Positions 21,546 through 57,738 of a stretch of DNA of 64,000 nt are shown in pieces. The translations under genes were made by a program, and so were the position numbers. The stretch spans positions 11,326 through 75,325 of the forward strand of contig JAFSPF010000079.1 in the NCBI GenBank assembly GCA_017443065.1. The letters are read 5' to 3'. Numbering within the stretch: the stretch's first letter is position 1; every line of letters begins with the position of its first letter. The notes beneath the pieces were generated by a model, which was not told where the DNA came from, did no database searches, and saw only the letters and a list, made by a program, of their open reading frames with translations. Origin of the DNA: Lachnospiraceae bacterium (GTDB lineage: Bacteria > Bacillota > Clostridia > Lachnospirales > Lachnospiraceae).

Positions 21546-24500
21546 TTATTCCGCTACCGCCAGATAGGCCAACTCGCCGCGCGTCACGGTATCGCTCAGG
21601 GGGTAGCTCTCCAGATCCGGCGCTTCCGCCGCGGCCGCGGGCTGCAGGGCCAGCATCGCCTTCAGCGTTTCCAGCGTTGCCTCCTTTGTCAGCTCGTCCT
21701 CCGCCTTGAGTCCGGAAAGGAATCCCATCTGCTGGAACATTCCAAGCGCCGTTTCCGCATCCGACATGCCGGCCATCATGACATAGGCAAATTCCCCGAC
21801 CGTCGCCGGCTCATCCACGCCGAAGACATCCTCTTCGAGCGGCTCCATGAAGCCCATACCGACCACTGTCTGCACGGCCTCATAGAATTCGTGATCCTCC
21901 GGCACGTCCGTGAATTCGAGATTCGTTTCCTCCCCGGACGCAGCGCCGAAGGGATTGAGGATTTCCTCATAGAGATCTTCATTGGCGTTGATCTTTGCGG
22001 CGGTGCCGGAGGTCGACATGCGGCCGGCTTCCAGAATCCTGTCGTAAATATCCGCAAGTTCCTTCACGCGTTCCGGTGTCACGCTCTTTGCCTGGCGCAT
22101 GTATTCCAGGGTCTTCTCCGTGCTCTTTCCCTTCAGGTGATTGTTCAGCGCCGTCATCGCACCGGTCAGCTCCCCGGCAGGCTTCGCATAGCCCACATAA
22201 GCGCTCATGATATAACCGTCAACCTCCTCCTGCGTGAGCTCCATCCCACGCAGTTTGTCTGCGACGGTGGCATACACATCAAAACTTTCCTTTACATTCG
22301 GATCGCGGTAAGTATAGATGAAAACGCCGGTATCCTCTTCAAACACGTTGAAGGCACCGTAGGCACCGTAACGGTCGCGCAGTTCCGGTAACAGAATCCG
22401 GTCATCCACGATCTGTGCGACCACGCCGAGATCAGCGGTATAACCGTCTTCGAGTCCCATGTCTTCATATCCCGCCACAATCATGTTGTACTGCACGCCG
22501 GACTCCGCGATCATGGCTTCTTTGTTTTTCGGTACCGGAAGATCATATGCCGCGGCTTCCGTCTCTTCGTATTCCATCGACTCCATAAAGGCGTCCGCCA
22601 GTGCACGGTTCGTCTCGATATCCGCTTCACTTCCCGCAAAGCATACGATGAAGCCATAGCGGTTGCGCAGTTTCTCCTGCACGGTTACGAGGCGTTCCGT
22701 CAGGTCTTTGATCCCCTCTTCATCCTCCGCCGCGAACATGTCCTGCAATTCCGCAAGGTAGGCATAATAATCGACACCCGCCAGATAGGACATAAAGCGC
22801 GCCTGTTCGTCAAAGGTTGCATACCCGCGGTTCAGCTGTTGCCCCACAGGCGACTGGTTATACTCATTGCGTTTCTGCGTATAAACGGCCTGCACGGCAT
22901 TGCTGAGTTTTTCCGGATCACTGAAGTCCAGTTCAAAAATGAGCTGGCGCATCAGGTCATAGCCTGCTTCCAGATCCTTCGTGTTGGCAATCCATCCCAT
23001 CTGCAGGTAGGGATGTGCGCCCCCTTCCTCCGTGCGGAGGTTCGAAACGGCAATCTGGGGGTTATAGGTATAACGCGCCATCTGTGTGTCGATTTCCGCA
23101 CGGCTTAAGTTTTCCGTTTCCAGATAGGCCGTCAGGTTGCGGAAGAGCATGAAGTCATGGATTTCCTCCGTTGCAAAGGATTGCGCGTCGATCATGAGCG
23201 TGACAAAGCCCACGCCGTCAACACCCGCAACCGCCTCCAGATAACGGACCTCTTCCTCCTCCCGCATCTCATCGCGGATCTCGTATTCGCGCGCTTCCTC
23301 GGGAAGATCGGCAACCTCCACGACCTTCAGCTGTGCGAGCATTTGTGCCGTGGCGTCATCGATCTCTTCCTCTGCGGGCGCTTCTTCCGTTGTTGCGGCA
23401 TCTGCACTGTCCTCTGTCGAGGCCGTGTCCGCGCTGTCCTCTGTGGAGGCTGTGTCTGTGGCATCCGATGTTCCCGTCGAGGCCGTATCGGCACTGTCTT
23501 CCGTGGACGCTTTGTCTGTCGCGCCCGTTGCGCCTGTGTCTGCGTTGTCCTCTGTCGAGGCCGTGTCCGCGCTGTCTTCTGTTGACGCTTCATCCGTGGC
23601 GTCGGTTTCTTCTTCCGCTGCCTCCTCTTCGCCCGCGTCAAACGTGCGGCTCTCTTCGATCAGCGTCGCGATCTCTTCCTTGCTCATGCCGGCCTTGATC
23701 TTCGCCAGCTCCGCCGCAAGCTCTGCGTCTTCCTTTTCCTTCAGTCCGGGTTCCGGATAGGTGGTGACAAGCGTTGTCGGTGTCTGCTCCTCATCCAGCA
23801 GTTTTTCCGCAATCGCTTTGAATGTACCGTCCGTATTCCATTCCGAAAGTTTCTCCACGGCATCATACTGTGCCATCATTTCCCAGGGATTCCCCGTGAT
23901 GGCATAGTAGTAGGCCAGGGTTGCGATGACATTGACTCCCGCGCTTTCATCCTCCCGCAACAGGCGGTTGCTCAGGGACTGTGTGGCCATCACGCCGTCG
24001 ATCAGTTCCTCCGGGAGACCGTTCTCCGCAATATCCGCAAGGGCATCGTTTACGATTTCCTGATATTTCTCCGCGTCTTCGCGGTTCACGTTCTCAATGC
24101 TGAACATCGGCAGAAGATCCGGTCCCGCGATCTCCACGCCGCAGGTCGCAACACCCGAGGGGAACTCCTGCTTCAGCGTCTGCGTCAGCGGAGAAGCATC
24201 CTGGGCCATCAGAACGCCGAACATCTGCAACGGCAGGGATTCCTCCTCCTCAAACGCGCTGCCCACAAAGTTGTAATAAACGATGGCCGCGTTCTCCGTC
24301 GGCGTGCCCTCCTCCACTGCGAAGGGGACTTCTTCCACGACCGATTCCGTGATGCGCTCGTAATCCTCCTCCACGAACCACGGCTCCGCCTCCTCCTCCG
24401 GCTCTTCCTCTGCAGGCGTCTCTGTCGATGCAGTGTCTGTACTGTCTTCTGGCGATGCGTCTGATGTCTCTGCTGTCGATGCATCTGATGTTGTTTCCTC

Positions 24501-25736
24501 ATCATCAGCGCCCGTCGCACCCGTTCCGGCATTGTCCGTCGCGCCTGTGCCGGCATCATCCGTCGTCGCCGTGTCTGTGCTGTCTGCCGTCGAAGCCGCA
24601 TCCGTTGCATCTTCTGTCGTTGCTTCGTCCGCTACATCTGTGCTTGCTTCGTCTGCCGCATCCGTGCTTGCTTCGTCTGCCGCGTCACTTGCTTCCGCAT
24701 CCGCGGCGTCTTCTACTTCCGCCTCTGCGTCTTCCTTGCCGAAGTTCGTGAAGACTTCGTTCAGCAGAGCCAGGAATTTTTCATATTCCACGATATCGCC
24801 GTAGAGGAAGGCCACGCAGTTATCCGGCGTATAGAAGGTATCGTGATAATCCTTCAGTTCCTGCCAGGTCATGTCCGGGATATCCTTCGGATCACCGCCG
24901 AAACTGTAGGTGATGGAGGTGCCGGGGAGCGATGCACGGATCGCGTTGAGGTTGGCCTGCGTTTGCTTGGTCGTCGCGCCGAGCATCTCGGAATACACCG
25001 TGCCTTCCATTGTAAGGTCATCCTCTTCGCTCTCCAGGCGGTAGCGCCAGGCCTCCGTGCGGTAGATGGATTCGTCTTCCATGATCATCGGGTAGAAGCA
25101 GCTGTCCGTATAATAATCCGCAAGCGCCAGAAGCTGTGCCTCCGAAAGCGAGGCGACCGGATAAGTCGTCATGCGGTCATAGGTCATCGCATTCATGAAG
25201 GTGTTGTATGTCTGGTACATCAGATTAAAGAACAGGGTCTTGGAGGGATATTTCTTTGAGCCGCCCAGTGTCGCATGTTCAAAGACATGCGGCAGTCCCT
25301 CGTTGTTGATGGAATGGGTAAGAAATGTCAGATCAAAGGCGCGGTTCGTGTCGTCGTTATGAATGTACATGAGCTTCGCGCCGCTGTCCTCATGGGAAAA
25401 CCAGCCGACCTCCGCGCCCATGATTTCAAAATCCCGCACTTCCAGGAGTGTGAAGCCCTCCACGGTTTCCCCGACCTCCGGGAAGCCCGCAAACTGCGGC
25501 CCTTCCTCCACGGGTTCTTCTTCCGCTTCCGCTTCCTCTGCCGGCTCCGTCGTTTCTCCCGTGCTCGCCGCAGCGGAAGAGCCGCGCGGTGCCGGAATCG
25601 TGATCGTCGTGCTCCTGGAACTTCCGGCACTGGAGGATCGGGTGCTGCTGCCGCCGCTACCGCACCCCGTCAACAATGCGCATACCAAAATCAGCGCCCA
25701 TACGGACGCAAGCCTGCCAAAGCCCCTGCTTTTCAT
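21546..25736 (-). CDS. very large lipoprotein M16 (insulinase/PreP-like) metallopeptidase with two acidic S/T/D/A-rich inserts and an SLH-like C-terminal module
   Basis: Lipobox signal MKSRGFGRLASVWALILVCALLTGCG. HxxEH zinc motif (HVFEHATLGGSKKYP). AAAGGAG RBS before the ATG at 25736. Confidence 0.85.
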   Translation of the reverse strand: MKSRGFGRLASVWALILVCALLTGCGSGGSSTRSSSAGSSRSTTITIPAPRGSSAAASTGETTEPAEEAEAEEEPVEEGPQFAGFPEVGETVEGFTLLEVRDFEIMGAEVGWFSHEDSGAKLMYIHNDDTNRAFDLTFLTHSINNEGLPHVFEHATLGGSKKYPSKTLFFNLMYQTYNTFMNAMTYDRMTTYPVASLSEAQLLALADYYTDSCFYPMIMEDESIYRTEAWRYRLESEEDDLTMEGTVYSEMLGATTKQTQANLNAIRASLPGTSITYSFGGDPKDIPDMTWQELKDYHDTFYTPDNCVAFLYGDIVEYEKFLALLNEVFTNFGKEDAEAEVEDAADAEASDAADEASTDAADEASTDVADEATTEDATDAASTADSTDTATTDDAGTGATDNAGTGATGADDEETTSDASTAETSDASPEDSTDTASTETPAEEEPEEEAEPWFVEEDYERITESVVEEVPFAVEEGTPTENAAIVYYNFVGSAFEEEESLPLQMFGVLMAQDASPLTQTLKQEFPSGVATCGVEIAGPDLLPMFSIENVNREDAEKYQEIVNDALADIAENGLPEELIDGVMATQSLSNRLLREDESAGVNVIATLAYYYAITGNPWEMMAQYDAVEKLSEWNTDGTFKAIAEKLLDEEQTPTTLVTTYPEPGLKEKEDAELAAELAKIKAGMSKEEIATLIEESRTFDAGEEEAAEEETDATDEASTEDSADTASTEDNADTGATGATDKASTEDSADTASTGTSDATDTASTEDSADTASTEDSADAATTEEAPAEEEIDDATAQMLAQLKVVEVADLPEEAREYEIRDEMREEEEVRYLEAVAGVDGVGFVTLMIDAQSFATEEIHDFMLFRNLTAYLETENLSRAEIDTQMARYTYNPQIAVSNLRTEEGGAHPYLQMGWIANTKDLEAGYDLMRQLIFELDFSDPEKLSNAVQAVYTQKRNEYNQSPVGQQLNRGYATFDEQARFMSYLAGVDYYAYLAELQDMFAAEDEEGIKDLTERLVTVQEKLRNRYGFIVCFAGSEADIETNRALADAFMESMEYEETEAAAYDLPVPKNKEAMIAESGVQYNMIVAGYEDMGLEDGYTADLGVVAQIVDDRILLPELRDRYGAYGAFNVFEEDTGVFIYTYRDPNVKESFDVYATVADKLRGMELTQEEVDGYIMSAYVGYAKPAGELTGAMTALNNHLKGKSTEKTLEYMRQAKSVTPERVKELADIYDRILEAGRMSTSGTAAKINANEDLYEEILNPFGAASGEETNLEFTDVPEDHEFYEAVQTVVGMGFMEPLEEDVFGVDEPATVGEFAYVMMAGMSDAETALGMFQQMGFLSGLKAEDELTKEATLETLKAMLALQPAAAAEAPDLESYPLSDTVTRGELAYLAVAE

Positions 25737-26011
25737 TCCCCTTACTCCTTTCTGTAAGCCAAAATTACAATATATAATAACATTTTTCCGGGGGAGATAC
25801 AAGATGTTGATTTCGGCCTTTTACGTCATACTGATTCATGCAACGGATTGCTTCGCACTTCGTGCTTCCGCAATCCTCCCGCCCATTCGGAAATCGCCCC
25901 GCTCACTTCGTTTCGCGTGGCTGTTTTCCTCATGTCCGGGTGCGGGACAAATAAAAAAACGGCGGCTCATGCGAGCATGGCCACCGTGTTTTTGCTTGTC
26001 CCTTGCATGAA

Positions 26012-41936: not shown

Positions 41937-42659
41937 TTATTCGGCGTCTGCTGCCGGTGCTTCTTCTTTGGGTTCTTCTGTTACTGCTTCTTCTGCTGCA
42001 GGTGCTTCTGCTGCTTCTTCAGCCGGAGCCGCTTCCTCTGCAGGCGCTGCTGCCTCTTCCGCTGCAGGTGCCGCTTCCTCTGCCGGGGCTGCCGCTTCTT
42101 CTGCTGCAGGTGCTGCTTCCTCTGCCGGGGCTGCCGCTTCGGCTGCCTCTTCCTTCGGTGCAGGTTCTGCGCCGCTCTCCTTCTGCTCCGCGATCTGCTT
42201 CACGACGCGCGCGAAGTTTGCGATCGGGGACTGCATGGAGCCGAGCAGCTTGGAAAGCAGTTCGTCCCTCGACGGGATCAGTGCGATTTCCTGAAGCGCC
42301 GCGGCGTCATAGAACTTGCCTTCGATCACGCCGCCCTTGAGTTCCAGGTCTTTGTTTGTCTTTGCAAATTTGCAAAGCACGCGTGCCGGTGCGGCAGGAT
42401 CTTCCGCGGAGACCGCGAGTGCGGACGGGCCGTTCAGCAGGTCCTGCAGCTGTGCATAATCCGTGCCCTCAAACGCGCGGGTCATCATCGTGTTCTTGTA
42501 AATCTTGTAGAACACGTTGTCCGCACGAAGCTGACGGCGCAGCTGCGTATCCTGTGCAACGGTCAGACCTCTCGCATCCACCAGAACCACCGCCTGCGCG
42601 TCCTTGACGTGCTCTGCGATTTCCTGCACGATCGGCTGTTTTAACTCAACCTTTGCCAT
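41937..42659 (-). CDS. rplJ: 50S ribosomal protein L10 with an atypical ~75-aa Ala/Glu/Pro repeat tail
   Basis: MAKVELKQPIVQEIAEHVKDAQAVVLVDARGLTVAQDTQLR... is a canonical L10. After the L12-binding helix it continues as EPAPKEEAAEAAAPAEEAAPAAEEAAAPAEE... I chose the ATG at 42659. Confidence 0.93.
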   Translation of the reverse strand: MAKVELKQPIVQEIAEHVKDAQAVVLVDARGLTVAQDTQLRRQLRADNVFYKIYKNTMMTRAFEGTDYAQLQDLLNGPSALAVSAEDPAAPARVLCKFAKTNKDLELKGGVIEGKFYDAAALQEIALIPSRDELLSKLLGSMQSPIANFARVVKQIAEQKESGAEPAPKEEAAEAAAPAEEAAPAAEEAAAPAEEAAPAAEEAAAPAEEAAPAEEAAEAPAAEEAVTEEPKEEAPAADAE

Positions 42660-42880
42660 GTTCGTTTTCTCTCCTTTCCTGCGCAATGCGCAAAGTCTGT
42701 TTCAGGAGACTGTTTCCTTCATAAAGAAAACGCCCCTGTATGTTCCAAAGACATACGGAGGCTGTTGCATACAAATAAACTGTATTCCCTCACCTCGGCT
42801 GGCGCGGCTCTCACCGTCTTACGACTTTCGTCACCTGCTGTCTTCGGCATGGTCTTTTCAGACCGCTATTTACATTACCA
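42660..42880 (-). promoter_or_regulatory. long rplJ 5' leader (candidate L10-leader autoregulatory RNA)
   Basis: About 200 nt of ORF-free, structured-looking sequence sits upstream of rplJ. The call comes from position and from known L10(L12)4 autoregulation in Firmicutes. I did not verify the motif. Confidence 0.35.
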
Positions 42881-44106: not shown

Positions 44107-45294
44107 TCAGTTTAGCATGGTGGCAAACGCAAACTCCATTGTGCCATCATCCTTATCAAGTAAAGAAAAAAAGAACAGACCGTCATATTCAGACAGCATA
44201 GTGACTTGTCTAAAACCCTTGTCACTATTCTCGAAAAGAAGTACATCCGGCAGATCAGGCAGATCATATACGGGTTTTTCAAAATCTTTTAAGGCCTCCC
44301 TCGGATAATAAACATTCACTTTAACCCCATTAATGATATTTTGATATTCATCCGCAATACTGATACGATATCGCGGAGAAAGTGTTTCATACATCTTCCC
44401 CGCACTGTCAGGTCCGACTAATAATCCCGGACTTTCATATATTGTTTCAACAGTAACCGCCTCTGCCGGCAGGTCTGTCAGCGAATAGAAAAAACCGTCG
44501 TATGATCCTAACCCATAATCGTGCAAGTGCCTTCCGTCTGTGTCATCCCTCAGGGAATAATCCATATATAAGCCAATTGGCGTCACATTGTTATACTCCA
44601 GCGAACCGCTCAGTTCCCTGTGATATCTTTGCCGGTCATCCTCGGAACGGAAAGAAAGACAGTGGATTTTCGAATGCGTGCCCTTTAACAATGACTTCCA
44701 AAAAACATCCTCTGTGACATTCTCAAACGAACAATTGATAAAATCCATTTTAATAATAAACCGTTCTTCCGCCAAAACAGTTTCTAAGTTTTGTCCGTCA
44801 TAAAAAGTCGTGAAGTGCATATCATAGATCTCCGACCCATAATCGCCCCTTGGTACGCCGTACCCTCCGTTGAAAGAAAACGCCTTCGGCGCCCCATACG
44901 TTTCAATTGCTTTCGCCTCAATGGCAGCCAGTATTTCCTCTCTCTGATAGTTATCTCTTGTTATTTCCGAAATTTCATCACTGTCCCCGTTTGTAAATAC
45001 ACCGAACTCCTTCTCATCCGTTCGCATCCGAACCGTAAGACGCGACGTTTTCTTTCTCGGGGAGATGACAGGAACGGGTGATATGATATACTCAAACTCC
45101 ACATCAACCGCCTCTGCCTGAACGCCATACTTTTCAAGTATATATCGTTCTGCATTCTTCATGGCCTGTTCCTGCCAGCGGCTTTCCTCCTCCAGACGTT
45201 TATTACTCTCTCCGTCCAGGGTGACAAGCCGTATGAAAAGCGCTGCCAATAATATGTAAAACACAACAACCGCAACTTTTCCCTTTGTATTCAT
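44107..45294 (-). CDS. membrane-anchored hypothetical protein, island family A (copy 1)
   Basis: N-terminal anchor MNTKGKVAVVVFYILLAALFIRLVTL, then KNAERYILEKYGVQ. Paralogous to the disrupted gene at 54789..55893. ATG at 45294 with GGAGTAAG upstream. Confidence 0.8.
   Translation of the reverse strand: MNTKGKVAVVVFYILLAALFIRLVTLDGESNKRLEEESRWQEQAMKNAERYILEKYGVQAEAVDVEFEYIISPVPVISPRKKTSRLTVRMRTDEKEFGVFTNGDSDEISEITRDNYQREEILAAIEAKAIETYGAPKAFSFNGGYGVPRGDYGSEIYDMHFTTFYDGQNLETVLAEERFIIKMDFINCSFENVTEDVFWKSLLKGTHSKIHCLSFRSEDDRQRYHRELSGSLEYNNVTPIGLYMDYSLRDDTDGRHLHDYGLGSYDGFFYSLTDLPAEAVTVETIYESPGLLVGPDSAGKMYETLSPRYRISIADEYQNIINGVKVNVYYPREALKDFEKPVYDLPDLPDVLLFENSDKGFRQVTMLSEYDGLFFFSLLDKDDGTMEFAFATMLN
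45207..45294. repeat. ~88-bp near-identical repeat encoding the shared N-terminal membrane anchor (copy 1)
   Basis: Nearly identical to 49372..49461, although the two genes diverge completely after the anchor. Confidence 0.85.
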
Positions 45295-45415
45295 TAAAAC
45301 TCTTACTCCGTTTCCCGGTCGTTCTGCCCGCCGGTTATCCTTCGTGAAACAATGATCTCCGCGATATGTGACAGGAAAACCCATAATACCGGCATTGCCG
45401 TCGGTATAAATGCTT

Positions 45416-46699: not shown

Positions 46700-46785
46700 G
46701 CTTTACTACCTTTTTATTTTTACTATACCGTCCATCATCCTGATGAAGATCTCAAGAAGCATTCCTGCATCATCATTCGGCGAAC

Positions 46786-47538
46786 TCAAAATATCTCCTT
46801 TACCGCCTCCGTGAATTCACTTTCGCTCATGCCGATCTGCCCCTTCTCATAAGGGATGATCAGCTCAAACATGTCTGCTTTGATCGATAAGCTTGTGTCT
46901 CCCTTCTCACCCTTATCATACATCCACTCCTGAACTTCTTTCAGACGATCTTCCTCCGTCAGGAATAATACCAGATTACCCTCAAGCATTTCCATGTTTC
47001 TAAGCGCTTCTTTTAAACCATCATAGATCCGAGTTGCATCTGTCGGTTGGTCAGGGACAAAGAATACTTCTATGCGATACTTTTGATTACCCTTGCGTCT
47101 TCTTACATAATCCTCTATGCTGATCTCTGTATCCTTACACCCTTGATCTATTGACCCGATACGAAACGCATACACATCAAACAGCCCCGGGATCTTGTTC
47201 ATGTTAGACGATACACGTGCAGCTATTTTATTACATACGATACGCGAAATGTACTCATCACTTCCCCTGCTTCCGTCTGCTGTAATTGTCGCATTAAAAA
47301 GAAATTCCGGATGCGACTTTGCGTATGCCTTGGCATAGAACCAGTCCTCCCCTATATTTTGGGATCTGGCATTGACTACCATAAATTCCTCATTGTACTT
47401 TTCCTCAAGGTATTTTATGGTCATTTCCTCCCGTTTCTGTTCCGACCGCACGACAGGACCGCAGGCTGCAAGCATGGCAGATAAAGCGGTTGCCATAAGC
47501 ATTATTCCTATTCTTGTTTTACGTACATGCGGATTCAT
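46786..47538 (-). CDS. lipoprotein, island family C
   Basis: Lipobox LAACG. Post-anchor helix TIKYLEEKYNEEF, related to the motif in families A and D. Confidence 0.75.
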   Translation of the reverse strand: MNPHVRKTRIGIMLMATALSAMLAACGPVVRSEQKREEMTIKYLEEKYNEEFMVVNARSQNIGEDWFYAKAYAKSHPEFLFNATITADGSRGSDEYISRIVCNKIAARVSSNMNKIPGLFDVYAFRIGSIDQGCKDTEISIEDYVRRRKGNQKYRIEVFFVPDQPTDATRIYDGLKEALRNMEMLEGNLVLFLTEEDRLKEVQEWMYDKGEKGDTSLSIKADMFELIIPYEKGQIGMSESEFTEAVKEIF

Positions 47539-47586
47539 GTATGCTTTCCTCTTTTCACCTTCATGCAGTTTGTTTTAAACCACTCT

Positions 47587-48528
47587 TTATTCTTTTGCAT
47601 AATCGTCAATCCATATCATCCCAAAAGCAGCGTATGGATTGTTGTTGCGGATGATTTCTGCATTACCTTCCTCTATGTCAATCCTACATAACGTATATGT
47701 ATTAGCACTTGTCATTCCACGACCAAGCTCTTGATAAATAAGCTTCTTGTCATCCGGTGACAACGCATGAGCATGATCGACATATCCGCTTTTACAGATG
47801 AGACGTTCCGTGTTTTTTTCTATATCATAATAATACCATGCGACGCCGTCCACATTATATAGCACATCCCCCTTGGACGTAACCTCAAATTCAAAACACA
47901 TATCATTCTGACTCTGAAACAATTCCTTTATTTCACCAGTGTTAATATCCAAAATCGCAAAAGCTCCATGATCCGTTGAAAGATACATTCGGGTCTCATC
48001 GAGCCATCGATAAGGTGGATTTGGCGCATAAAAACCACGGGGAAATGTATCAACCAAAGAAAGTCCATCCTCTTCGTTATACAACCACAGATTCATACAA
48101 TAATAAAAACTGATACCTCCTCCCGGGCGGTATTCCACCCTCCACGGTGCTTCAAAATCCTGTTCTATTCCGCGCTCTTCACATGCTCTTACCAGTTCTT
48201 CTCGCGAAAGAAGATACTTCACTTCGTCTGTCATTAGATTATACTCTACAAGGCACCATTCTTCGTCGTCCACTGTCGCAGCTATCGCGTCATGCGTATC
48301 ATTTATATCTATTGAAACCAATAAAAAATCCTCATTGACCATTAACTCCGCCTCTGCTTCCAATAAAGGATTCGACATGATCAAATGACTTTTTTCTATG
48401 CCTGTTATTTCAGAAATGAATATCTTATCTCCACTCATCTTACCGTCCATGTTTTTAGCGCATCCCACAAGCAGCCCCAAAAGCCCTCCTATAATTATCA
48501 ACTTCTTAAATGCTGCTTTCATGCCCAT
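47587..48528 (-). CDS. lipoprotein with a TolB-like beta-propeller signature, island family B (copy 1)
   Basis: Lipobox LLVGCA. Motifs WRVEYRPGGGISFYYC and LSPDDKKLIY. Paralogue of 52454..53395. AGGAGGG RBS. Confidence 0.8.
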   Translation of the reverse strand: MGMKAAFKKLIIIGGLLGLLVGCAKNMDGKMSGDKIFISEITGIEKSHLIMSNPLLEAEAELMVNEDFLLVSIDINDTHDAIAATVDDEEWCLVEYNLMTDEVKYLLSREELVRACEERGIEQDFEAPWRVEYRPGGGISFYYCMNLWLYNEEDGLSLVDTFPRGFYAPNPPYRWLDETRMYLSTDHGAFAILDINTGEIKELFQSQNDMCFEFEVTSKGDVLYNVDGVAWYYYDIEKNTERLICKSGYVDHAHALSPDDKKLIYQELGRGMTSANTYTLCRIDIEEGNAEIIRNNNPYAAFGMIWIDDYAKE

Positions 48529-48723
48529 TCGCCCTCCTATACTATTCTTTTATCCGGCAAACAAAAAAGAACTATGGCATTGCAAAAGACATTGTGTTAA
48601 TGATTCAATATCCCGCATTGAAACCGTTTGTATATCCTTTACCAATTATACCCGTTAGTATGAAATTCTCTTATTCTATAATCAAATGATGTGTCCGCAT
48701 ATACGTCCATCGAATATCCTGCG

Positions 48724-49461
48724 CTAATACCCTCTTCTTCCATCTTGCCTTTGATATTTTTTTTTCAATTCGCGATAGTCCTTTTCTGTCATGTCGGGAG
48801 CAACACATTTGATCCATAGAGTATGTCCCGCACCTTTTTTTTCATTCAAAAACATCTCAGCCGTCAGCCCTTCCGCAAAGTCTTTTCCTTGCGGTCTGAC
48901 CCTTGACAGAATAACTTCTTCGCACTCGGGGGCTATCTCGCGCAGTTTTTCCTTCATGATACGTTCATAATCATCCTTGATGAACACGATATAGAAATTA
49001 TCTTCCGCTTTATACGGATAGTGACGAATGTCTTCCGCATACACGTAAACTCTGTACGTCTTCCAATAGAATTTGTCCGTTGACTCATACTCCTCCCGCG
49101 GCAAAAACTTGAACACCGCATAGTTATCGTCTTTATTCTGAACAGCTCCGCCGACAATCCTCAAATCGTATGACGGATACTTTTCCTTCAGATACTCTTG
49201 TGCATAATCTAATTGATACAGATAATGGCTTTCGTAATATATATTCGCTTTCTCTGTATGAAAAAAGTCCTTCAATATTTCCATATGTTCCTGTTTGAGT
49301 TCACGGTCGTATTCTCTTGGGTGTTCCATTGCGATAAATGCAGGCTCGGATTCTCCTTCGCCGGCACCGCTACTCTCGCCGTTCAAGGTGACAAGCCGTA
49401 TGAAAAGCGCTCCCAATAATATGTAAAACACAACAACGGCAACTTTTCCCTTTGTACTCAT
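48724..49461 (-). CDS. membrane-anchored hypothetical protein, island family D (copy 1); candidate immunity protein
   Basis: Anchor MSTKGKVAVVVFYILLGALFIRLVTL, shared with family A. AQEYLKEKYPSYDLRIVGG matches AKEYLNRKYPSYDFIILDG of 51488..52282. Lies immediately downstream of the WXG-like ORF. Confidence 0.8.
   Translation of the reverse strand: MSTKGKVAVVVFYILLGALFIRLVTLNGESSGAGEGESEPAFIAMEHPREYDRELKQEHMEILKDFFHTEKANIYYESHYLYQLDYAQEYLKEKYPSYDLRIVGGAVQNKDDNYAVFKFLPREEYESTDKFYWKTYRVYVYAEDIRHYPYKAEDNFYIVFIKDDYERIMKEKLREIAPECEEVILSRVRPQGKDFAEGLTAEMFLNEKKGAGHTLWIKCVAPDMTEKDYRELKKKYQRQDGRRGY
49372..49461. repeat. ~88-bp near-identical repeat encoding the shared N-terminal membrane anchor (copy 2)
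   Basis: Matches 45207..45294. Confidence 0.85.
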
Positions 49462-49492
49462 CTCACACACCCTTTTGTCCGTTAAACCGATC

Positions 49493-49735
49493 TTACATGA
49501 TAAGGTTATTTCTGAGCAGTACTGACGCCTGCTCATTTAGCGCTTCTCCCTCATCATAGATTCCTGCCATCTCCCGCAACTTCACCGGATATTCCTTCAG
49601 ATTGCTTAATGCCGTCTGCAACTGTTCTGTTTCCGCTTTTTCATATGATGACTGATAGGCTTCATGGGCATTCCCGATCCAGTACCCGACGGTTTTTCGC
49701 ACTGTTTCATAGAGCATTTCAAAGACTCCGGACAT
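49493..49735 (-). CDS. 80-aa helical protein with W-x-G and YxxxE motifs (WXG100-like / Lap-like candidate partner)
   Basis: The sequence ..TVGYWIGNAHEAYQSSYEK..LSNL..AGIYDEGEALNEQ.. is predicted all-helical. It begins 22 nt after the lipase stop. The RBS is weak. The W-x-G sits unusually near the N-terminus (residues 19-21). Confidence 0.55.
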   Translation of the reverse strand: MSGVFEMLYETVRKTVGYWIGNAHEAYQSSYEKAETEQLQTALSNLKEYPVKLREMAGIYDEGEALNEQASVLLRNNLIM

Positions 49736-49757
49736 TCGGCTTATCTCAGGGATTCAC

Positions 49758-51464
49758 TCAGACCCTTCGACCACATGCTGCGCTCTCCGATAACTGATAT
49801 GCGGCACAGATTTGTTGTATCGCAGAATCCATACTTTTACAGCATTGTGACTGTTGTGTGATCTGCTCACAGATCGCAAGAACTGTGCTCTTTACGCTCG
49901 CAAGCTCTCCGCGCAGGGAATGCGCGATACTCTCGGCTCTTGCGCTACAGGATAACAGTTGTGTTGACTGCTGGGTCATCATGGATGCGGCGGTTTGCAG
50001 TTTATCGGGGACGACAAAAAAAGCTCTGTCCGATCCGCCTGGGGTGCTCTGATTTTCCTCTTTTGGCACGTAGTCATCTATAAAATATGGCGTCTTGTCT
50101 CTACGAAATTCATTGATTTCAATTTCATCCATCTTTTCTCCGGTGCGGATAAGAAGTATATATAGTCTTCTACACTGTTCATCCGTCAAATCTATACCGC
50201 AATCGCGGAAGATCTCCTTGATGTTCAACATGGACCGGCCGAATACAGCCCCACGAGCGCCTTCGTATTTCAGAAATTCGTCCAGTAGTGGCGAATCCAA
50301 CAAAAGTGCTTTTGTAAAAATCAGCCCCTTTTTGTTCTCGTCTGTTATATCGCCCAATAACACGTCGGCAATCGAAAAAAACACATCCGGGTACCTTTTC
50401 TGATACTCCCTCGCATATGCCAATAAATACGCAACATGATCCACGTTTTCATTTGAGGTAAGTAGTGAAATAATCTCTGATTTCCCAAGTTCTCCAGTTC
50501 TGGCTCCCTGCACAATCTCTCCCACGAGTGCAAGTGCTTCATTTCTGTTTGTCTCCGACATTGACCTTAAATAACTGTTCAGAAATAAATCAAACTCCTT
50601 CATCATAGGATCTCTTTCACCGGGGATCATTGAATAAGATCCGTTTTCATCAAAGTGCAGATAGGCGTTCGGACAATGATTCTCCACAAATCCGCCGCTG
50701 CCGATGTTCGCGGCCTTGAAATAATAATCCCTTCCCACCTGATTCAGCAGCGCATTCGCGAAATCGCTTTCAGCATTCAGATTGACTATCTTGTCATGAG
50801 CCACTCCTACCTCATATGCATATGTTTCCATAAATTCATCCGAAAAACCCTGACCATCCATAGAGATGCATCTGTCAATCGCTCTTGGCGCCCCCTCTGC
50901 CGCATCCAGAATTGTTACGTACTTTGCCTTATTTCCTCCCTTGGAGTGACCGATGACCGTAATATAATCATCGCTACTTAACAGCCCGTTTCCATTCTCT
51001 CCAAAAAGGCTTTCATACCATTCCTTTGCCCGTTCCTGCGCAGGACTCGAAATCCCGTCAGCGGTCTGCTGGTTTCCTCCAATTGCAAAGTTGTCGGCCC
51101 ACTCTGTTTTCGTTGATCCGCGAAACGCGATCACGTTTTCCTGTGTCTCCGGATTTCTGAACAAAACCGCCGTGCCCTCACGACTGCGAGTCCCAACGGT
51201 CTCCTGATGCACATTGCGGATTTCCATGTTCATCAGCACCGGATCCTGTTCAATCGCCTCAATAATCTGCTTCCACTCTTCTTTCGTCGTGTGGACGTAT
51301 TCATCATTTGATGCAGGAACGTTATCAAAATCTATTGTGCTTATTAAATCACCTACCGTATGACCCTCAAAAAAAGTTATATCACGCATGCCCGCATCTC
51401 TTTCGTGCGGCATATAAGTAAGGTTTTCCAACAAAACCAACTGTTCATAGCTAAGCGTGTCCAT
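49758..51464 (-). CDS. Mbeg1-like/DUF2974 alpha/beta-hydrolase (lipase-type) with a C-terminal WXG100/LXG-like helical hairpin; candidate secreted toxin
   Basis: VIAFRGSTKTEW..ITVIGHSKGGNKAKY..SMDGQGF..ENHCPNAY gives a GxSxG nucleophile elbow with Asp and His candidates. No signal peptide. The last ~90 aa, FFVVPDKLQTAASMMTQQSTQLL...SLRGELAS..., resemble the start of an ESAT-6/LXG domain, with L-x-G about 36 residues in. ATG at 51464 is preceded by AAGGGAGAGG. Confidence 0.8.
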   Translation of the reverse strand: MDTLSYEQLVLLENLTYMPHERDAGMRDITFFEGHTVGDLISTIDFDNVPASNDEYVHTTKEEWKQIIEAIEQDPVLMNMEIRNVHQETVGTRSREGTAVLFRNPETQENVIAFRGSTKTEWADNFAIGGNQQTADGISSPAQERAKEWYESLFGENGNGLLSSDDYITVIGHSKGGNKAKYVTILDAAEGAPRAIDRCISMDGQGFSDEFMETYAYEVGVAHDKIVNLNAESDFANALLNQVGRDYYFKAANIGSGGFVENHCPNAYLHFDENGSYSMIPGERDPMMKEFDLFLNSYLRSMSETNRNEALALVGEIVQGARTGELGKSEIISLLTSNENVDHVAYLLAYAREYQKRYPDVFFSIADVLLGDITDENKKGLIFTKALLLDSPLLDEFLKYEGARGAVFGRSMLNIKEIFRDCGIDLTDEQCRRLYILLIRTGEKMDEIEINEFRRDKTPYFIDDYVPKEENQSTPGGSDRAFFVVPDKLQTAASMMTQQSTQLLSCSARAESIAHSLRGELASVKSTVLAICEQITQQSQCCKSMDSAIQQICAAYQLSESAACGRRV

Positions 51465-51487
51465 GCCTCTCCCTTTCGCAAATATGC

Positions 51488-52282
51488 TCACTTACATAAA
51501 AAGCTATACGTAAACACTCTATTATTAAAACTCTCATCTTCAAATATATCTATCATAAATCCTCCGTGTATTTTTTTTTCAAATATAAGTTGCTCTATCC
51601 TTTTTGTCGCCCCTTCGTAGTCCTCTCCCTCTATGTCCTCTGCACATAGCGAAAAAAACACCATGGTGCTAATTTTCATCGAAAGAATATCCTCTACTGT
51701 AACACTCTCCCCATATTGTTCTCCCAGCGCATTACTAAAGCGGATTGTCACGTCCCTAATCCGAATTCCTTCTTCCAGCAGGAGCGATTCAAAAAAGTCT
51801 TCAAAATCATCCTTAACAATTTCGCAGAAAAAAGTATCCTCAATATTGACTACCTTTGCACTATCCTCTACATCGACAAATACGTCAACTATAAATAACT
51901 CATTGTATGTCAACGCATCATCAAACTTGTCTCTTTCATAAAAAAAGAACTTCGCCATTCTCCTGTCTTTTGTTATGTTCTCCCCATCCAAGATTATGAA
52001 ATCATACGACGGATACTTCCTGTTTAGGTACTCTTTGGCTGTTCTGGAATGATTCAGAAACGTTTTCTGATACCCAAACAATTCACCTTCTTCTATCCTC
52101 TCCTCTCCAAGAAAAACTCTTTTCAATAACGCCTTCTCTTCCTCTGTCATTTCGACGCGTTCTTCTTCCGCCGGTGAATCCCCGGACATATTCGTATTCC
52201 CCGACGCGCATCCCGTCAGGAGTAAAACAACAATAAGACTGCATATATACCGAAGCAGCCTGCTTGAACTATTTTTCCTCAT
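51488..52282 (-). CDS. lipoprotein, island family D (copy 2); candidate immunity protein
   Basis: Lipobox LLTGCA. Paralogue of 48724..49461. Its stop is 23 nt upstream of the lipase start. Confidence 0.8.
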   Translation of the reverse strand: MRKNSSSRLLRYICSLIVVLLLTGCASGNTNMSGDSPAEEERVEMTEEEKALLKRVFLGEERIEEGELFGYQKTFLNHSRTAKEYLNRKYPSYDFIILDGENITKDRRMAKFFFYERDKFDDALTYNELFIVDVFVDVEDSAKVVNIEDTFFCEIVKDDFEDFFESLLLEEGIRIRDVTIRFSNALGEQYGESVTVEDILSMKISTMVFFSLCAEDIEGEDYEGATKRIEQLIFEKKIHGGFMIDIFEDESFNNRVFTYSFLCK

Positions 52283-52373
52283 TTCGCATACCCTTTTGTC
52301 TGTGAAACGATCTTAGATAAGTTTACAGAGACTCCTTTCCCCGTTTCTCGGGATCTGTTATACACGATTACCG

Positions 52374-52458
52374 CTCTTTATTCTTTTGCATAATCGTAAA
52401 TCAATATCATCCCAAAAGCAACGTATGGATTGTTGTTGCGGATAATTTCTGCATTACC
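52374..52458 (-). pseudogene. 85-bp remnant of a family-B gene 3' end
   Basis: Near-identical to 47583..47667, the last 26 codons plus stop of the B1 gene. It would read GNAEIIRNNNPYVAFGMILIYDYAKE*, but it is out of frame with B2. The remnant supplies B2's stop codon. Confidence 0.8.
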
Positions 52459-53395
52459 ATATTATCGCATACCGCTCTTCATCTCCCCACTTTTTAATCA
52501 CCGATGTTTTACCAGCACTAATATCCAGCAAAATCAGTCTTGAAATACCGGAGCCGGTGATACCATGATTTTCTTCCTGAAAGAGAAGATATTTCCCATC
52601 CGGCGAAATAGCGTAAACATTTGTAACAAACCCGGCTTCACACAGCAATCTGCTTGTCTCCGTTTCCGTGTCAAGGATATACCATCCCGTTTTGTCGTCA
52701 TGATAAATCAAGCTTCCATCTGAACCAATGACGTATTCAAAACTATGATTGGAATCTGTGCGCAGATATCTTTCTTCCTCACCTGTATATACATTAATCT
52801 TTTTTAACCAACCTTTGTACGCTGACACATAAACAGTATCGCTATCAATCCACCGGTATGCCACTCCACCGCCACGGTACTCCCGGGGAAACCCTTCTAA
52901 TAATACACATTCTCCATCGCTATATAGCCAAAGCCTGCTGCAATAATAAAAACTAATACCGCCACCCGGATGATATGCCACACGCCAAGCCGGACTATGA
53001 TTCTTCTCTACCCCTTCCTCCTCCAAATATCTTTCCATCTCTTCTACGGTGACTAATATCGTTTCTTCACCTGTGGATAAATCGTACTCCACAAGTAATA
53101 CACCGTTTCCACTCGTTGTCGCGGCAATTTTCGACTTGCTTTCGTCCAGTCCAAGCGATAAATACACGCGTCCCTCTGCCTGGAGCACGGTTTCATCCTT
53201 CTCCCCATTCATATTCCTTCGTATGATCTTTCCATTTCCGCCATCTCCCGGAGTTGAAACATAAAAATCCGGTTCATCCATTTTCTTTATCTTCCGGCCA
53301 AAGAATAACAGTGCCAAAATCGCACCGCCTGCAACTAAAAACAATACTATCGCAATAATCATTCTTTTATTTACGACGCCATTCTGCATTGCCAT
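52454..53395 (-). CDS. membrane-anchored TolB-like beta-propeller protein, island family B (copy 2)
   Basis: N-terminal TM helix. Motifs WRVAYHPGGGISFYYC and ISPDGKYLLF. Paralogue of 47587..48528. Confidence 0.8.
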   Translation of the reverse strand: MAMQNGVVNKRMIIAIVLFLVAGGAILALLFFGRKIKKMDEPDFYVSTPGDGGNGKIIRRNMNGEKDETVLQAEGRVYLSLGLDESKSKIAATTSGNGVLLVEYDLSTGEETILVTVEEMERYLEEEGVEKNHSPAWRVAYHPGGGISFYYCSRLWLYSDGECVLLEGFPREYRGGGVAYRWIDSDTVYVSAYKGWLKKINVYTGEEERYLRTDSNHSFEYVIGSDGSLIYHDDKTGWYILDTETETSRLLCEAGFVTNVYAISPDGKYLLFQEENHGITGSGISRLILLDISAGKTSVIKKWGDEERYAIIW

Positions 53396-53577
53396 TTACC
53401 TGCCTCTTCTTTTATTCTCCGGATATTTTACCACACTCGCCTCCTGTTCCGCCATCCTTGGCGGAACCTAAAGACAGTCGGCCCGGTAGTATCGCACATC
53501 CGTGTGCAGATACCACGGCTTGATATACTATGGGTATACGACAGCACATAAAAGTATTGCTCCTCGTATGCAATCGC

Positions 53578-53606
53578 TTGAGAATTTAGCATAATCATGC
53601 TAAAAT
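53578..53606 (+). promoter_or_regulatory. promoter with embedded operator palindrome for the toxin-antitoxin pair
   Basis: TTGAGA, a 17-nt spacer, then TAAAAT. A perfect 8-bp inverted repeat TTTAGCAT-aatc-ATGCTAAA (53585-53604) spans the spacer and the -10 element. Confidence 0.6.
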
Positions 53607-53630
53607 ACCGGAGAAGGAGAGGGATGAAGC

Positions 53631-54788: not shown

Positions 54789-55893
54789 ATGAACTGTTTC
54801 GTGAAGAAATCCGGAAAACGCATTTACAGAACGCTGCGCCGTGTGACAGTGATGGTCATGGCGGTATTGGTGTGCCTGACCGCCTGTGAATCGGCTAAGG
54901 AACGTGAAGAACGTATCGAAAATGAAAACCAATGGCAGGAACAGGGCATGAAGAACGCGGAGCGATATGTCCTTGAAAAGTACGGCATTCAGGCAAAGGC
55001 ACTGGATGTGGCATTTGATACGGCATATCCGACCGGCGCGGTTTTGGCATCTCCCCGGAACACAATGTCTATGACAGTCAGGATGCGCGCGGGGGACAAA
55101 GAATTTGGTGTATACATCAACGGGGACAGTGAAGAGTTTGCGCACTATACGAGGGACAATTATCAAAGAGAAGAGATACTGGCAGCGATCAAAGCCAGAG
55201 CGTCTGAAACTTACGGTGAACCGCTGGTGTTTTCTTTCCGCGTGGGGCAAAACCTGCCGAGAGGAGACTACGGGCCGGAAATCTATGATACGCACTTCCG
55301 GACGTTTTATGACGGGAATCTATTGTCTTTCCTTTCGCTCCGAAGAAGACCGGCAGACATATCACACAAAAATGTCGAATTCGCAAAAATACACAGAGGT
55401 GGAACCGATCGGATTATATATGGATTATTATCTGAGAGACGGAGAGAATAAAGAACGCGTAAAATGCTACTATACCTTGTGTAAGCATGACGGCTTTTTC
55501 TATACCCTTCGGAATATGCCGGAAAACGCGGTGATGATTGAAACGGCAGATGAGCATCCGGGCGTATTCGCGGGGAAGAACAAAAACGGGAAGAGCTACT
55601 ATACCTGTTCTCCCACATACCGTGTCCGGCTCAGGGATGAATACAAAGATGCGTTTGACAGTATTTGGAGGTACAGTGTAACCGTTTATTATCCCGGGAG
55701 CGGCATCACCGTCGGGAAAGATTACGAGGGCTTTAAGTATTCGGTTGAAATGTATTATGACAGGTACAACCGGTTGATTGATTTCAATTCGCAGACGTTG
55801 CATGATGCCTATGACGGTAAGTTTCATTTGTACATAGACACCTCAGACACTGAGGTGGATGCGATCGAATTTGCGATTGCCACGCAGCCTTAA
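54789..55893 (+). pseudogene. disrupted family-A lipoprotein gene (copy 2): internal deletion plus frameshift
   Basis: ORFs 54789..55451 and 55105..55893 together align with the protein of 44107..45294. About 40 codons are missing after HFRTFYDG, and the frame shifts near 55315-55325. The N-terminus carries the lipobox LTAC. Confidence 0.8.
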
Positions 55894-55916: not shown

Positions 55917-57623
55917 CTACCCGATCAGAACGGTCTTCCCCTCAAAGGCAAATCCGTACTTGCGGATGCGGTCTTCCGGGATCCCCTTTGCGACAAGAGA
56001 CGCGGCATATTGTTTTTCTTCGATCTGTGCATGCGCAGCGGCGACGGTGTCTTCGAGCGTCTTTTCGCCCTTCTTTTCGTTCTTTACTTTGAATTCAATG
56101 ATGATGGCGTCGTTTTCCGCGGGGTTCCTTGGTTCCAGTACAAGGTCATAGCGCCCGAAGCCGGATTCCCGGTTACTTGTGATAAGATAGCGGTCTTTCA
56201 ATTCCACCATCAGTCCCAGTGCAAAGCCATGGTAAAAGCGTTCCGGTTCACTCCTTTCGGACGGTTCGTTTCCGGTGTCAAAGGTTGAAAACGTCACCAG
56301 CGCCACGTCGTTCATGTACGCATTCATTTCTTCCTCTTCGCCCTTCAGGAGCGCCCGGATGAAGCGGTTGTAATTGGCATGTCCGTCCGCAAACCAGTCA
56401 CGGACCAGACCTTCGAACATATTCCGCACTTCCAGATTGGTCAGCGTAAGCCGGCACTGATTTGAATCCATCGTTTCCGCTTTCAGATACCCGCTTGCCA
56501 GCAGTATGCTCCAGATCGCTTTTTCCGAAGCGTTCATTCTCTTGAAAACAATCTCTTCATCGATCTCCGATACGATACTCCCGCCGCGCAGCAGTATCTC
56601 AAAATCCTGTTTGAGCTCTGTGGAGCCTTCCCTGATCAGACGTCCCGCAAGGGCATTGGAGGAGGTGTTGGCCCAATAGGGTTTCAGCTTTCCGTTATTG
56701 TCCAGGTAATTTGTGATGGACCAGGGATTGTAGATGCTGTTGACACTGCCGAAGGTAAAACCGTCATACCACTCCTTTACCGAATCCTTATCAGACAGCC
56801 CCTTCTCGTCCATGGCGGCAAAAACTTCTTCCTCCGTAAATCCGAAGCAGGTTTCATATTTATCAGACATGACGGATACGACTTTCAGGTTGTTCAGATC
56901 AGAAAAAAGAGATTCCTTTGAAATCCTTGTCACGCCCGTAATAACTGCGCGCTCCAGATGCGGATTGTCTTTGAACGTCGCGTTGAACATGCCGCGCAAA
57001 AACTGCGCGGCCTCATCCCAGAAACCGTGGAGCCACGCTTCCTGCATCGGGGAATCGTATTCGTCCAACAGCACAATGACTTTTTTACCGTGATATTTGG
57101 AAAGATATCCGCACAGTCTGTGGATGGCATCGCTGCCGTAAGCGTTTTCTTCGTCCGTCGCCATACGCTCAAAATGCGCCTTCAACATGCGATCGAAGTG
57201 CTCTTTTTCATCATCGCCGAGAATATCCCCTTCTGTCAGATAACGGTACCGTCCGTACAGCAGGGACATTTTGGAAAACAATTCGGTTTTCATGGTGTCA
57301 TAATCCGCCGGCTTGACGGAGGAGAATGTCAGATTGATCACGGGATATGTCCCCTGGATTGCGCGGTAGGTCTCATCCTCCCAGATGGAAAGCCCTTCGA
57401 ACAGGTCGGCGCGGTTTGCATAGGCTGTGGAAAAAAAGCATTCCAGCATGCTCATATTCAGCGTTTTTCCGAAGCGGCGCGGACGGGTGATCAGGGTGAC
57501 CTTGTCTCTCCCCTTCCACCATTCTTTGATAAAGGATGTTTTGTCCACGTAAAAACAGTCCTTTTCCCGGATATCCGTAAAATACTGTGCACCGATCGAA
57601 ACGGTTCTGCCTTTTTGCTCCAT
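55917..57623 (-). CDS. AAA-ATPase-like (DUF1703) plus PD-(D/E)XK nuclease-family protein
   Basis: FYVDKTSFIKEWW...ITRPRRFGKTLNMSMLECFF is characteristic of this family. C-terminal GRYDLVLEP...IIIEFK nuclease core. The start is chosen at MEQKGRT; the track start is 57737. Confidence 0.8.
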   Translation of the reverse strand: MEQKGRTVSIGAQYFTDIREKDCFYVDKTSFIKEWWKGRDKVTLITRPRRFGKTLNMSMLECFFSTAYANRADLFEGLSIWEDETYRAIQGTYPVINLTFSSVKPADYDTMKTELFSKMSLLYGRYRYLTEGDILGDDEKEHFDRMLKAHFERMATDEENAYGSDAIHRLCGYLSKYHGKKVIVLLDEYDSPMQEAWLHGFWDEAAQFLRGMFNATFKDNPHLERAVITGVTRISKESLFSDLNNLKVVSVMSDKYETCFGFTEEEVFAAMDEKGLSDKDSVKEWYDGFTFGSVNSIYNPWSITNYLDNNGKLKPYWANTSSNALAGRLIREGSTELKQDFEILLRGGSIVSEIDEEIVFKRMNASEKAIWSILLASGYLKAETMDSNQCRLTLTNLEVRNMFEGLVRDWFADGHANYNRFIRALLKGEEEEMNAYMNDVALVTFSTFDTGNEPSERSEPERFYHGFALGLMVELKDRYLITSNRESGFGRYDLVLEPRNPAENDAIIIEFKVKNEKKGEKTLEDTVAAAHAQIEEKQYAASLVAKGIPEDRIRKYGFAFEGKTVLIG

Positions 57624-57738
57624 GGAATCCGCCTTTCCTGCCCTTCCCATAGCAACTGAGACACCTTCATGATACCACAGGGAAGGCGGATTTGTCACAC
57701 GGGCACAAAAAGGACGGTTCTTTTTGTCCTTTTGCACG

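Follow-up and report, generated by a model that had tools for sequence, protein, structure and literature searches.

In this study, we describe a putative toxin gene and the genes around it in a stretch of 64,000 nucleotides from a Lachnospiraceae bacterium (GCA_017443065.1, contig JAFSPF010000079.1, positions 11,326 to 75,325 of the forward strand), which is referred to as the window throughout. The gene encodes a lipase-like protein of 568 amino acids that ends in a WXG100/LXG-like helical hairpin, an architecture called reverse here for its C-terminal placement of the proposed type VII secretion system (T7SS) targeting domain. A lipoprotein gene lies directly upstream, and a short WXG100-like open reading frame (ORF) and a signal-anchored paralogue of the lipoprotein lie downstream. 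The whole group sits in an island of about 12 kb (43900-55900) with a guanine-plus-cytosine (GC) content of 43-47% against 57-60% in the flanks, bounded by rplJ (41937..42686) and an AAA-ATPase_like/PDDEXK_9 gene (55917..57737). The lipase-like gene and its parts are as follows.

49758..51464, minus strand: candidate effector gene encoding a 568-residue reverse-architecture lipase-like protein (coordinates include the stop codon; based on the ORF, its ribosome-binding site, 432 homologues and an AlphaFold2 model)
50610..51464, minus strand: alpha/beta-hydrolase domain, lipase class-3-like, residues 1-285 (PF11187; Foldseek)
50934..50951, minus strand: nucleophile elbow G-H-S174-K-G-G, residues 172-177 (invariant in 73 homologues; coordinates checked by translation)
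50856..50858, minus strand: D203, alternative candidate acid (invariant column)
50763..50765, minus strand: D234, candidate catalytic acid (invariant column)
50676..50678, minus strand: H263 within ENHCP, candidate catalytic histidine (invariant column; position relative to the strands of the model)
50079..50609, minus strand: all-helical middle domain, residues 286-462 (AlphaFold2 helices across 286-445; kept in all architectures of the wider family)
50022..50078, minus strand: disordered linker of 19 residues, 463-481 (model confidence below 50 at 463-480)
49761..50021, minus strand: WXG100/LXG-like helical hairpin, residues 482-568, the proposed T7SS targeting domain (AlphaFold2; hhalign; 1831 relatives)
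49908..49916, minus strand: L517-R-G519 at the hairpin turn, LxG in place of WxG (conservation in 73 homologues; alignment to WXG100)
49785..49799, minus strand: Y556-Q-L-S-E560, a YxxxE export-type motif near the C-terminus (conservation in 73 homologues; aligned with Y-x-x-a-E of WXG100)

The frame can be read in a longer form (49758..51491, minus strand) that starts at a GTG nine codons further upstream and overlaps the preceding gene. The ATG at 51464 gives the 568-residue form and has GGGAGAGG directly ahead of it, with a strong ribosome-binding site. A hydropathy scan, used here in place of a dedicated signal-peptide predictor, found no signal peptide, hydrophobic segment or transmembrane segment in this protein, the highest Kyte-Doolittle average over 15 residues being 0.58 in the first 60 residues and 1.4 in the entire protein, in line with the proposal of the first-pass annotation that the product is made without a signal peptide. 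The same annotation had recognised an alpha/beta-hydrolase core from the motifs AFRGS, GHSKGG, MDGQGF and ENHCP. All four are found in the hydrolase, and the Pfam model PF11187 (Mbeg1-like, DUF2974) matches residues 76-219 with E=2e-10 and 40.9 bits against a gathering cut-off of 21.1; a match to DUF6792 is weak, and annotations of homologues include DUF2974 or Mbeg1-like. In an alignment of 73 sequences, G172-G177, D203, D234 and H263 are invariant, and from this alignment and the model built on it, the catalytic triad would be Ser174, Asp234 (or Asp203) and His263. That AlphaFold2 model has a mean predicted local distance difference test (pLDDT) score of 81 and a predicted template modelling score of 0.75, and Foldseek places it closest in the PDB to 9cys_A, a type VI secretion system (T6SS) lipase effector from Enterobacter cloacae, with fungal class-3 lipases and Yarrowia Lip2 (3o0d) among the further matches. 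Sequence searches of the PDB, with the single protein and with the family profile, returned no lipase or TslA entry.

A database search returned 432 homologues of the hydrolase at E<=1e-3, nearly all of them of 530-570 amino acids and 32-38% identical over their full length, from Lachnospiraceae, Roseburia and other Clostridiales. No close copy was found among species-representative genomes, where the best match is 36% identical. Compared with a 91%-identical homologue (L088:667-2382), the ratio of non-synonymous to synonymous substitution rates (dN/dS) is 0.20 for the whole gene and 0.14 for the hairpin, and the ORF is intact; the hydrolase, hairpin included, is under purifying selection. The synonymous rate in this comparison is uneven; the lipase domain stands at 0.24, the middle domain at 0.036, and the linker and tail together at 1.36, a spread which suggests recombination between alleles and a mosaic gene.

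The tail begins with FFVVPDKLQ at residue 482, and L517-R518-G519 follows 35 residues on, matching the turn that had been placed about 36 residues after the start of the tail. In the model, helices spanning 486-516 and 519-567 are joined at this tripeptide, both with pLDDT above 90. When the tail profile was aligned by hhalign to WXG100 proteins from T7SS loci, the probability was 96% (E=4e-9, 92 columns) and three elements came into register, namely the FxVxPxxL start, the LxG turn opposite WxG, and YxxxE opposite Y-x-x-a-E. Of the 73 homologues, 70 retain Y556, 71 retain E560 and 56 retain L517, and 63 have a glycine within the turn window. The first-pass annotation had noted YxxxE on the small downstream ORF; the motif is indeed present there, but the stronger and near-invariant copy, Y556xxxE560, belongs to the hydrolase. 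When the tail profile was searched against the PDB, it matched EsxB chains over their full length (E=1.4e-3), and curated WXG100 models do match relatives with the same tail (P0184, E=3.5e-6; P0259, E=4.4e-4).

The link to type VII secretion comes from the genomes of relatives. In Anaerosporobacter faecicola, a homologue of the hydrolase gene lies between the gene for an EssC ATPase (TIGR03928, 1118 bits against a cut-off of 778) and four WXG100 genes, at a locus which also holds a PP2C phosphatase, FHA proteins and a YukD-like ORF; a second locus, of metagenomic origin, has the identical arrangement and a DUF4176 gene in addition. We took 79 loci from species-representative genomes and scored them with hidden Markov models (HMMs) for the tail, for EssC (E<1e-50) and for small WXG100 ORFs within a distance of at most 10 kb; one locus with both tail-bearing and tail-less copies (L080) was set aside, leaving 78. 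EssC, WXG100 genes or both were found within 10 kb at 20 of the 36 tail-bearing loci and at 2 of the 42 tail-less loci (Fisher p=5e-7), where 20/36 is a lower bound given that several tail-bearing loci lie on contigs of just 2-5 kb. Both tail-less exceptions have a different helical C-terminus. Pfam matches to EssA, EssB or EsaA were absent from the T7SS-linked loci of relatives, and judging from the phosphatase and FHA proteins, the EssC loci of the relatives would appear to be T7SSf-like (compare PMC11217815). On two contigs, labelled Alistipes onderdonkii (L040) and Prevotella sp. CAG:279 (L064), the lipase occurs together with EssC and five WXG100 ORFs; they are probably Bacillota contigs mis-binned into metagenome-assembled genomes of Bacteroidota.

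The tail domain is not confined to this hydrolase. A HMMER search with its profile returned 1831 proteins at E<=1e-3, and architectures were surveyed in subsets of the best 150 of these. In these subsets, the domain occurs as an N-terminal head (residues 2-91) on proteins of 280-1600 amino acids, with RHS repeats, CHAP, NlpC/P60, LRAT or Amidase_5 cargo behind it, while C-terminal copies are nearly confined to alpha/beta hydrolases of lipase-like type (Mbeg1-like, DUF6792, Lipase_3 and PGAP1). Standalone proteins of 90-120 amino acids are numerous among the matches listed. From its N- and C-terminal occurrence among the examined matches, the architecture is truly reverse, and the reversal goes with lipase cargo. 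The exceptions are P0154 (370 amino acids) and P0184 (379 amino acids), which have a glycine/alanine-rich, glycine-zipper-like N-terminal region and no lipase motif; both end in a WXG100 domain (PF06013, E=3.5e-6 for P0184), and from their sequences both are possible non-lipase reverse substrates of T7SS. An orientation rule, with the tail C-terminal on lipase-like enzymes and N-terminal on many other toxins, is thus suggested by the best-scoring matches and can be tested. As a variant of the tail, a 576-residue relative (L039:4380-6110) has a canonical W-x-G (KWMGDA) WXG100 domain with a C-terminal YHDTE in place of the LxG form.

Two members of one family are encoded beside the hydrolase, one directly upstream and one downstream.

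51488..52282, minus strand: 264-residue lipoprotein with lipobox LLTGC, candidate immunity protein or inhibitor (homologues directly upstream of most related hydrolases)
48724..49461, minus strand: 245-residue signal-anchored, C-terminally shortened paralogue, candidate second or orphan immunity gene (blastp; family HMM)

The two proteins are 28% identical (blastp, E=4e-13), and the HMM of the family, referred to below as the partner family, recovers the shorter one with E=4e-50. In most related loci, the gene just ahead of the hydrolase encodes a homologue of the 264-residue protein (tblastn, 49 loci; jackhmmer, 67 ORFs). The two genes named at first pass as immunity candidates are thus paralogues from a family which is common in this position. 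The family has no Pfam match, and neither DUF576 nor DUF1433 was found in the window proteins or in 39 family members; there is no sequence match to the family in the PDB, and a word-indexed search with the 264-residue lipoprotein returned itself and one distant match. Of the 37 pairs with a T7SS-type tailed hydrolase, 31 have a partner with a lipobox or hydrophobic N-terminus, and the partner lacks any signal where the hydrolase, of about 475 amino acids, has a C-terminal membrane anchor, which is the case in Butyrivibrio (Fisher p=3e-4). The location of the partner follows that of the hydrolase, as would be expected if it binds the lipase domain in whichever compartment this domain is found. 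Mean column identity in the family is 24%, extra or tandem paralogues occur in the window (the 264- and 245-residue proteins) and at L001, L034 and L050, and at the 91%-identical locus the partner is far less similar than the lipase. On the strength of this fast divergence, of the common extra paralogues and of the greater divergence of the partner than of the lipase, the family is likely to be one of immunity proteins rather than of helpers.

Two groups of relatives have other C-termini. The Butyrivibrio proteins of about 475 amino acids (L058, L059, L061, L062, L066, L074, L078, L083 and L084) have no WXG-like tail and end in a strongly hydrophobic anchor, their hydrolase genes lying at about 10000-11400 in most; by its sequence features, this gene pair would be an intracellular, membrane-anchored version. 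In relatives of about 812-830 amino acids from Acholeplasmatales and Lachnospiraceae, the lipase and helical module are fused to a C-terminal region that looks, by eye, like ATP-grasp (L038, L047, L052, L053, L055, L057, L060, L063, L067-L071, L073, L075, L077 and L081), and neither the partner gene nor T7SS genes are nearby.

A small W-x-G partner had also been proposed for the hydrolase.

49493..49735, minus strand: 80-residue, N-terminally truncated WXG100-family ORF, a doubtful partner (homology to WXG100 genes of 105-113 residues)

This ORF is as first described, in that it begins 22 nucleotides past the hydrolase stop and carries W19-I-G21 and Y60-D-E-G-E64. It is clearly a relative of WXG100 proteins, with up to 36-39% identity to WXG100 genes of T7SS loci (tblastn, E=1e-9, 10 loci), an hhalign probability of 96.9%, and W19, G21 and E64 on conserved WXG100 columns. 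Its scores stay below the curated cut-offs (PF06013, 13.6 bits against 27.3; TIGR03930, E=0.0017, 18.5 bits against 44.85, covering profile positions 27-86 only), and it is this combination of low scores and partial profile coverage, yet clear homology, that led us to read it as a truncated relative. It aligns from about residue 35 of its 105-113-residue relatives and is missing some 34 N-terminal residues. No upstream coding sequence supplies the missing helix, the ribosome-binding site is weak, and a word-indexed database search returned its own 90%-identity cluster only. At the locus with the 91%-identical hydrolase (L088), homology ends with the hydrolase gene and no such ORF follows. While the WXG100 kinship of the small ORF thus stands, its role as partner is doubtful, and by its sequence it would be what remains of a truncated WXG100 gene or, at the most, a mini-partner specific to the lineage. 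Outside T7SS clusters, an adjacent WXG100 gene is lacking at most of the tail-bearing loci, and the hydrolases more likely pair, as a rule, with a WXG100-type protein from the secretion locus.

Reverse lipases of T7SS are already established, and the present family is the same design with a differing tail, middle domain, partner family and loci. TslA (Tsl1) of the Staphylococcus aureus T7SSb was described in 2023 as a reverse lipase with a G-x-L motif, the partners TlaA1 and TlaA2 and the DUF576 lipoprotein immunity protein TilA (PMC10730906). The first-pass annotation had taken TslA as the sole exception to the N-terminal placement of the targeting domain, which does not hold, as TslM (Tsl2) of S. 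aureus, with one WXG100 partner, an LFG motif and the DUF1433 immunity protein Til2, was reported in August 2026 (PMC13560087), and reverse lipases at T7SSe (Neobacillus) and T7SSg (Paenibacillus) loci in 2024 (PMC11217815); the novelty is correspondingly smaller than first claimed. A search of the literature in full text found no paper that links Mbeg1-like/DUF2974 lipases or Lachnospiraceae to reverse T7SS substrates.

The protein in the window shares with TslA the N-terminal GxSxG lipase fold, including the match to Lip2 3O0D, which is the template reported for both TslA and TslM (PMC10730906; PMC13560087), and a candidate Ser-Asp-His triad like that of TslA (PMC10730906), along with a C-terminal helical LXG-like domain, the lack of a Sec signal, a lipoprotein gene directly upstream and residence in a genomic island. 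In fold class the two agree, and the different hydrolase family claimed at first pass is a weaker proposal for it. The protein differs from TslA in having L-R-G in forward order followed by YxxxE where TslA has G-x-L, a contrast drawn from the published descriptions, in having at most one small and truncated gene in place of two partners, in a lipoprotein without a DUF576 match, and in its 177-residue helical middle domain. With TslM it has in common the reverse lipase architecture, the LxG turn motif (LFG in TslM), an island location, a similar size (568 against 536 amino acids), a single WXG100-family gene and membrane-anchored immunity proteins (candidates in the present case) in variable arrays. 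Where TslM has an unstructured linker (268-384) and a helical domain of about 150 residues, we find a structured helical domain, a linker of 19 residues and a single hairpin of 87; where the immunity genes of TslM are divergently oriented and encode DUF1433 proteins of about 150 residues, the partner here belongs to an unrelated family of about 265 residues and is co-directional and directly upstream; and of the WXG100 gene there is only a truncated form in the window, which is not conserved.

Beyond S. aureus, the loci of relatives resemble the T7SSf of Clostridia in their FHA-EssC, PPM/PP2C phosphatase, FHA proteins and YukD-like gene (PMC11217815), and the T7SSe and T7SSg lipases indicate that variants other than T7SSb also bear C-terminally targeted lipases, although the source makes no mention of Mbeg1-like/DUF2974 proteins or Lachnospiraceae and names no immunity family for its lipases (PMC11217815). 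Like WXG100 proteins (EsxA, EsxB) and LXG N-terminal domains, the tail is a hairpin of about 90 residues with hxVxPxxL, a W/LxG turn and YxxxD/E, but it forms the C-terminal end of an enzyme and falls below the curated thresholds. The lipase-like fold likewise serves as a contact-dependent or secreted effector in T6SS Tle lipases (PDB 9CYS), in DUF2974 effectors of type IV secretion systems and T6SS, and in Mbeg1 from Gemella sanguinis (PMC6867899); immunity proteins in these systems are periplasmic or lie on the outer face of the membrane, a comparable placement, whereas the secretion systems, targeting modules and immunity families differ.

With a probability of about 0.72, we read the module as a reverse-type T7SS lipase toxin with an upstream immunity lipoprotein, present here as an orphan cassette. 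The serine hydrolase, similar to class-3 lipases, would be the toxic cargo and is probably a phospholipase that attacks membranes from outside. The last 87 or so residues, with the WXG100-like hairpin, LxG and YxxxE, would act as the targeting signal; the hairpin probably pairs with a small WXG100-type protein and may then be recognised by an EssC-type ATPase. The upstream lipoprotein and the downstream signal-anchored paralogue are predicted to lie on the outer face of the membrane, where they most likely bind the lipase domain and so shield the producing cell and its kin. The copy in this genome would be an orphan effector-immunity cassette, placed in a horizontally acquired low-GC island away from the T7SS core genes. 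At the level of the family, the core reading made at first pass, including the WXG100/LXG-like nature of the C-terminal hairpin, is supported by the confidence of the model, the profile alignment and the T7SS linkage given above.

Several findings weigh against this reading. An HMM scan of all ORFs in the window found no EssC, YukD or full-length WXG100 protein, and the island shows decay, in that the WXG100 ORF is truncated, one of the candidate immunity paralogues is shortened and a paralogue at 54789..55893 carries a frameshift. Curated WXG100 and LXG models give no match to the 568-residue protein, and designed coiled coils rank above EsxB in the PDB profile search with the tail, a dominance that warns of compositional bias, as coiled-coil-like profiles draw spurious matches. 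The model of the 264-residue lipoprotein, built on an alignment of eight sequences, has a pLDDT of 66 and no significant Foldseek match, and the partner need not be an immunity protein, given that its family is also kept beside non-T7SS architectures.

Part of this evidence would suit a cassette that has been stranded in a genome without a T7SS, in which the lipase is not exported and the lipoprotein genes are kept as orphan immunity against the lipases of neighbours; the biology of the family would be unchanged, and only the role of this copy would differ. The lack of any T7SS core gene in the window, the low GC content of the island, the decay of three of its genes and the best species-representative match of only 36% identity are all in keeping with this, and S. 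aureus is known to keep immunity genes where the toxin genes have been lost (PMC13560087). Yet the hydrolase ORF is intact behind a strong ribosome-binding site and has a dN/dS of 0.14-0.2 with the hairpin included, and TslA and TslM are themselves island-encoded and remote from the ess locus but still secreted (PMC10730906; PMC13560087), and we consider a stranded cassette rather unlikely. The upstream protein could instead be a foldase, activator or membrane receptor, with a lipase that remodels its own envelope or harvests lipids and a tail that delivers it to the surface. Retention of the gene pair across three delivery modes speaks for such a helper, as does the constant sharing of a compartment by partner and hydrolase domain, a pattern equally expected of an inhibitor; the fast evolution of the partner, its tandem and extra paralogues, its far greater divergence than the lipase at the closest homologue, the polymorphic toxins that neighbour it at T7SS loci and the toxin function of the closest characterised analogues (PMC10730906; PMC13560087) make a helper improbable. 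Most improbable of all is a cytoplasmic hydrolase whose C-terminal coiled coil merely oligomerises, the WXG100 likeness and T7SS neighbourhoods being coincidental. The failure of the curated models, the lead of designed coiled coils and the 16 of 36 tail-bearing loci without a T7SS gene within 10 kb would be expected from it, but it has to account for three motifs in WXG100 register with a near-invariant YxxxE, for the significant T7SS linkage, for the same domain at the head of RHS, CHAP and NlpC/P60 toxins, and for an extracytoplasmic partner.

A broader and more speculative history, which we regard as unlikely, is that of an old two-gene cassette, made up of the Mbeg1-like lipase and the partner of about 265 residues, which has been re-addressed several times. 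The form with the WXG100 hairpin would then be a T7SS toxin guarded by an external lipoprotein, the membrane-anchored form would stay inside the cell, where its partner is cytoplasmic too, and might be a phospholipase that is regulated or used for self-killing, and the ATP-grasp fusion would serve another purpose. The 87-residue hairpin would be a complete, portable export signal that borrows a core WXG100 protein and needs no adjacent partner, and the reverse orientation might be reserved for cargo that attacks membranes, that is, for lipases and perhaps P0154 and P0184.

The island is rich in pairs of membrane-tethered paralogues, and its remaining genes were not counted in the module where they have no counterpart in any of 86 related loci, which applies to a pair of 313-residue, membrane-tethered proteins (47587..48528 and 52454..53395, 32% identical), a 250-residue lipoprotein, a PBP-like protein and a 425-residue protein. 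The PBP-like protein (45416-46699) combines a PstS-like PBP_like_2 phosphate-binding domain with an N-terminal multi-helix membrane region and is co-directional with the toxin module. The 425-residue protein (44107..45384) has its frameshifted copy at 54789..55893 on the opposite strand, and its N-terminal signal anchor is 65% identical over 51 residues (MxTKGKVAVVVFYILL...) to that of the 245-residue paralogue, the remainder of the two proteins being unrelated; from these sequences, it looks as if different ectodomains had been joined to one shared anchor by recombination. The island also encodes, on the plus strand at 53631-54222, a toxin-antitoxin pair of Phd/YefM (E=4e-12) and ParE (E=6e-10). 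PADLOC gave no match for the hydrolase or the 264-residue lipoprotein, tblastn gave none in plasmid and phage collections, and scans for terminators and promoters returned counts at background level. Outside the island, a 1418-residue ORF (21546..25802) was considered as EssC because of its size and is in fact an M16 (PreP-like) peptidase that ends in an SLH domain and lies among genes for ABC, HlyD and MacB transporters and for the butyrate pathway.

Experimental demonstration of reverse T7SS toxins has so far come only from S. aureus, for two families. The locus described here and its roughly 400 relatives suggest that the same design is common in Lachnospiraceae of gut and rumen and in other Clostridia, where it would be tied to a non-canonical, T7SSf-like system, with a more compact targeting module, a single hairpin bearing LxG and YxxxE, and a previously unnamed family of putative immunity proteins. 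Such a hairpin may offer a minimal and well-defined signal at the C-terminus, suited to tests of substrate recognition by EssC-type ATPases where the substrate is built backwards, and the family as a whole points to lipase-based antagonism among the dominant anaerobes of the gut.

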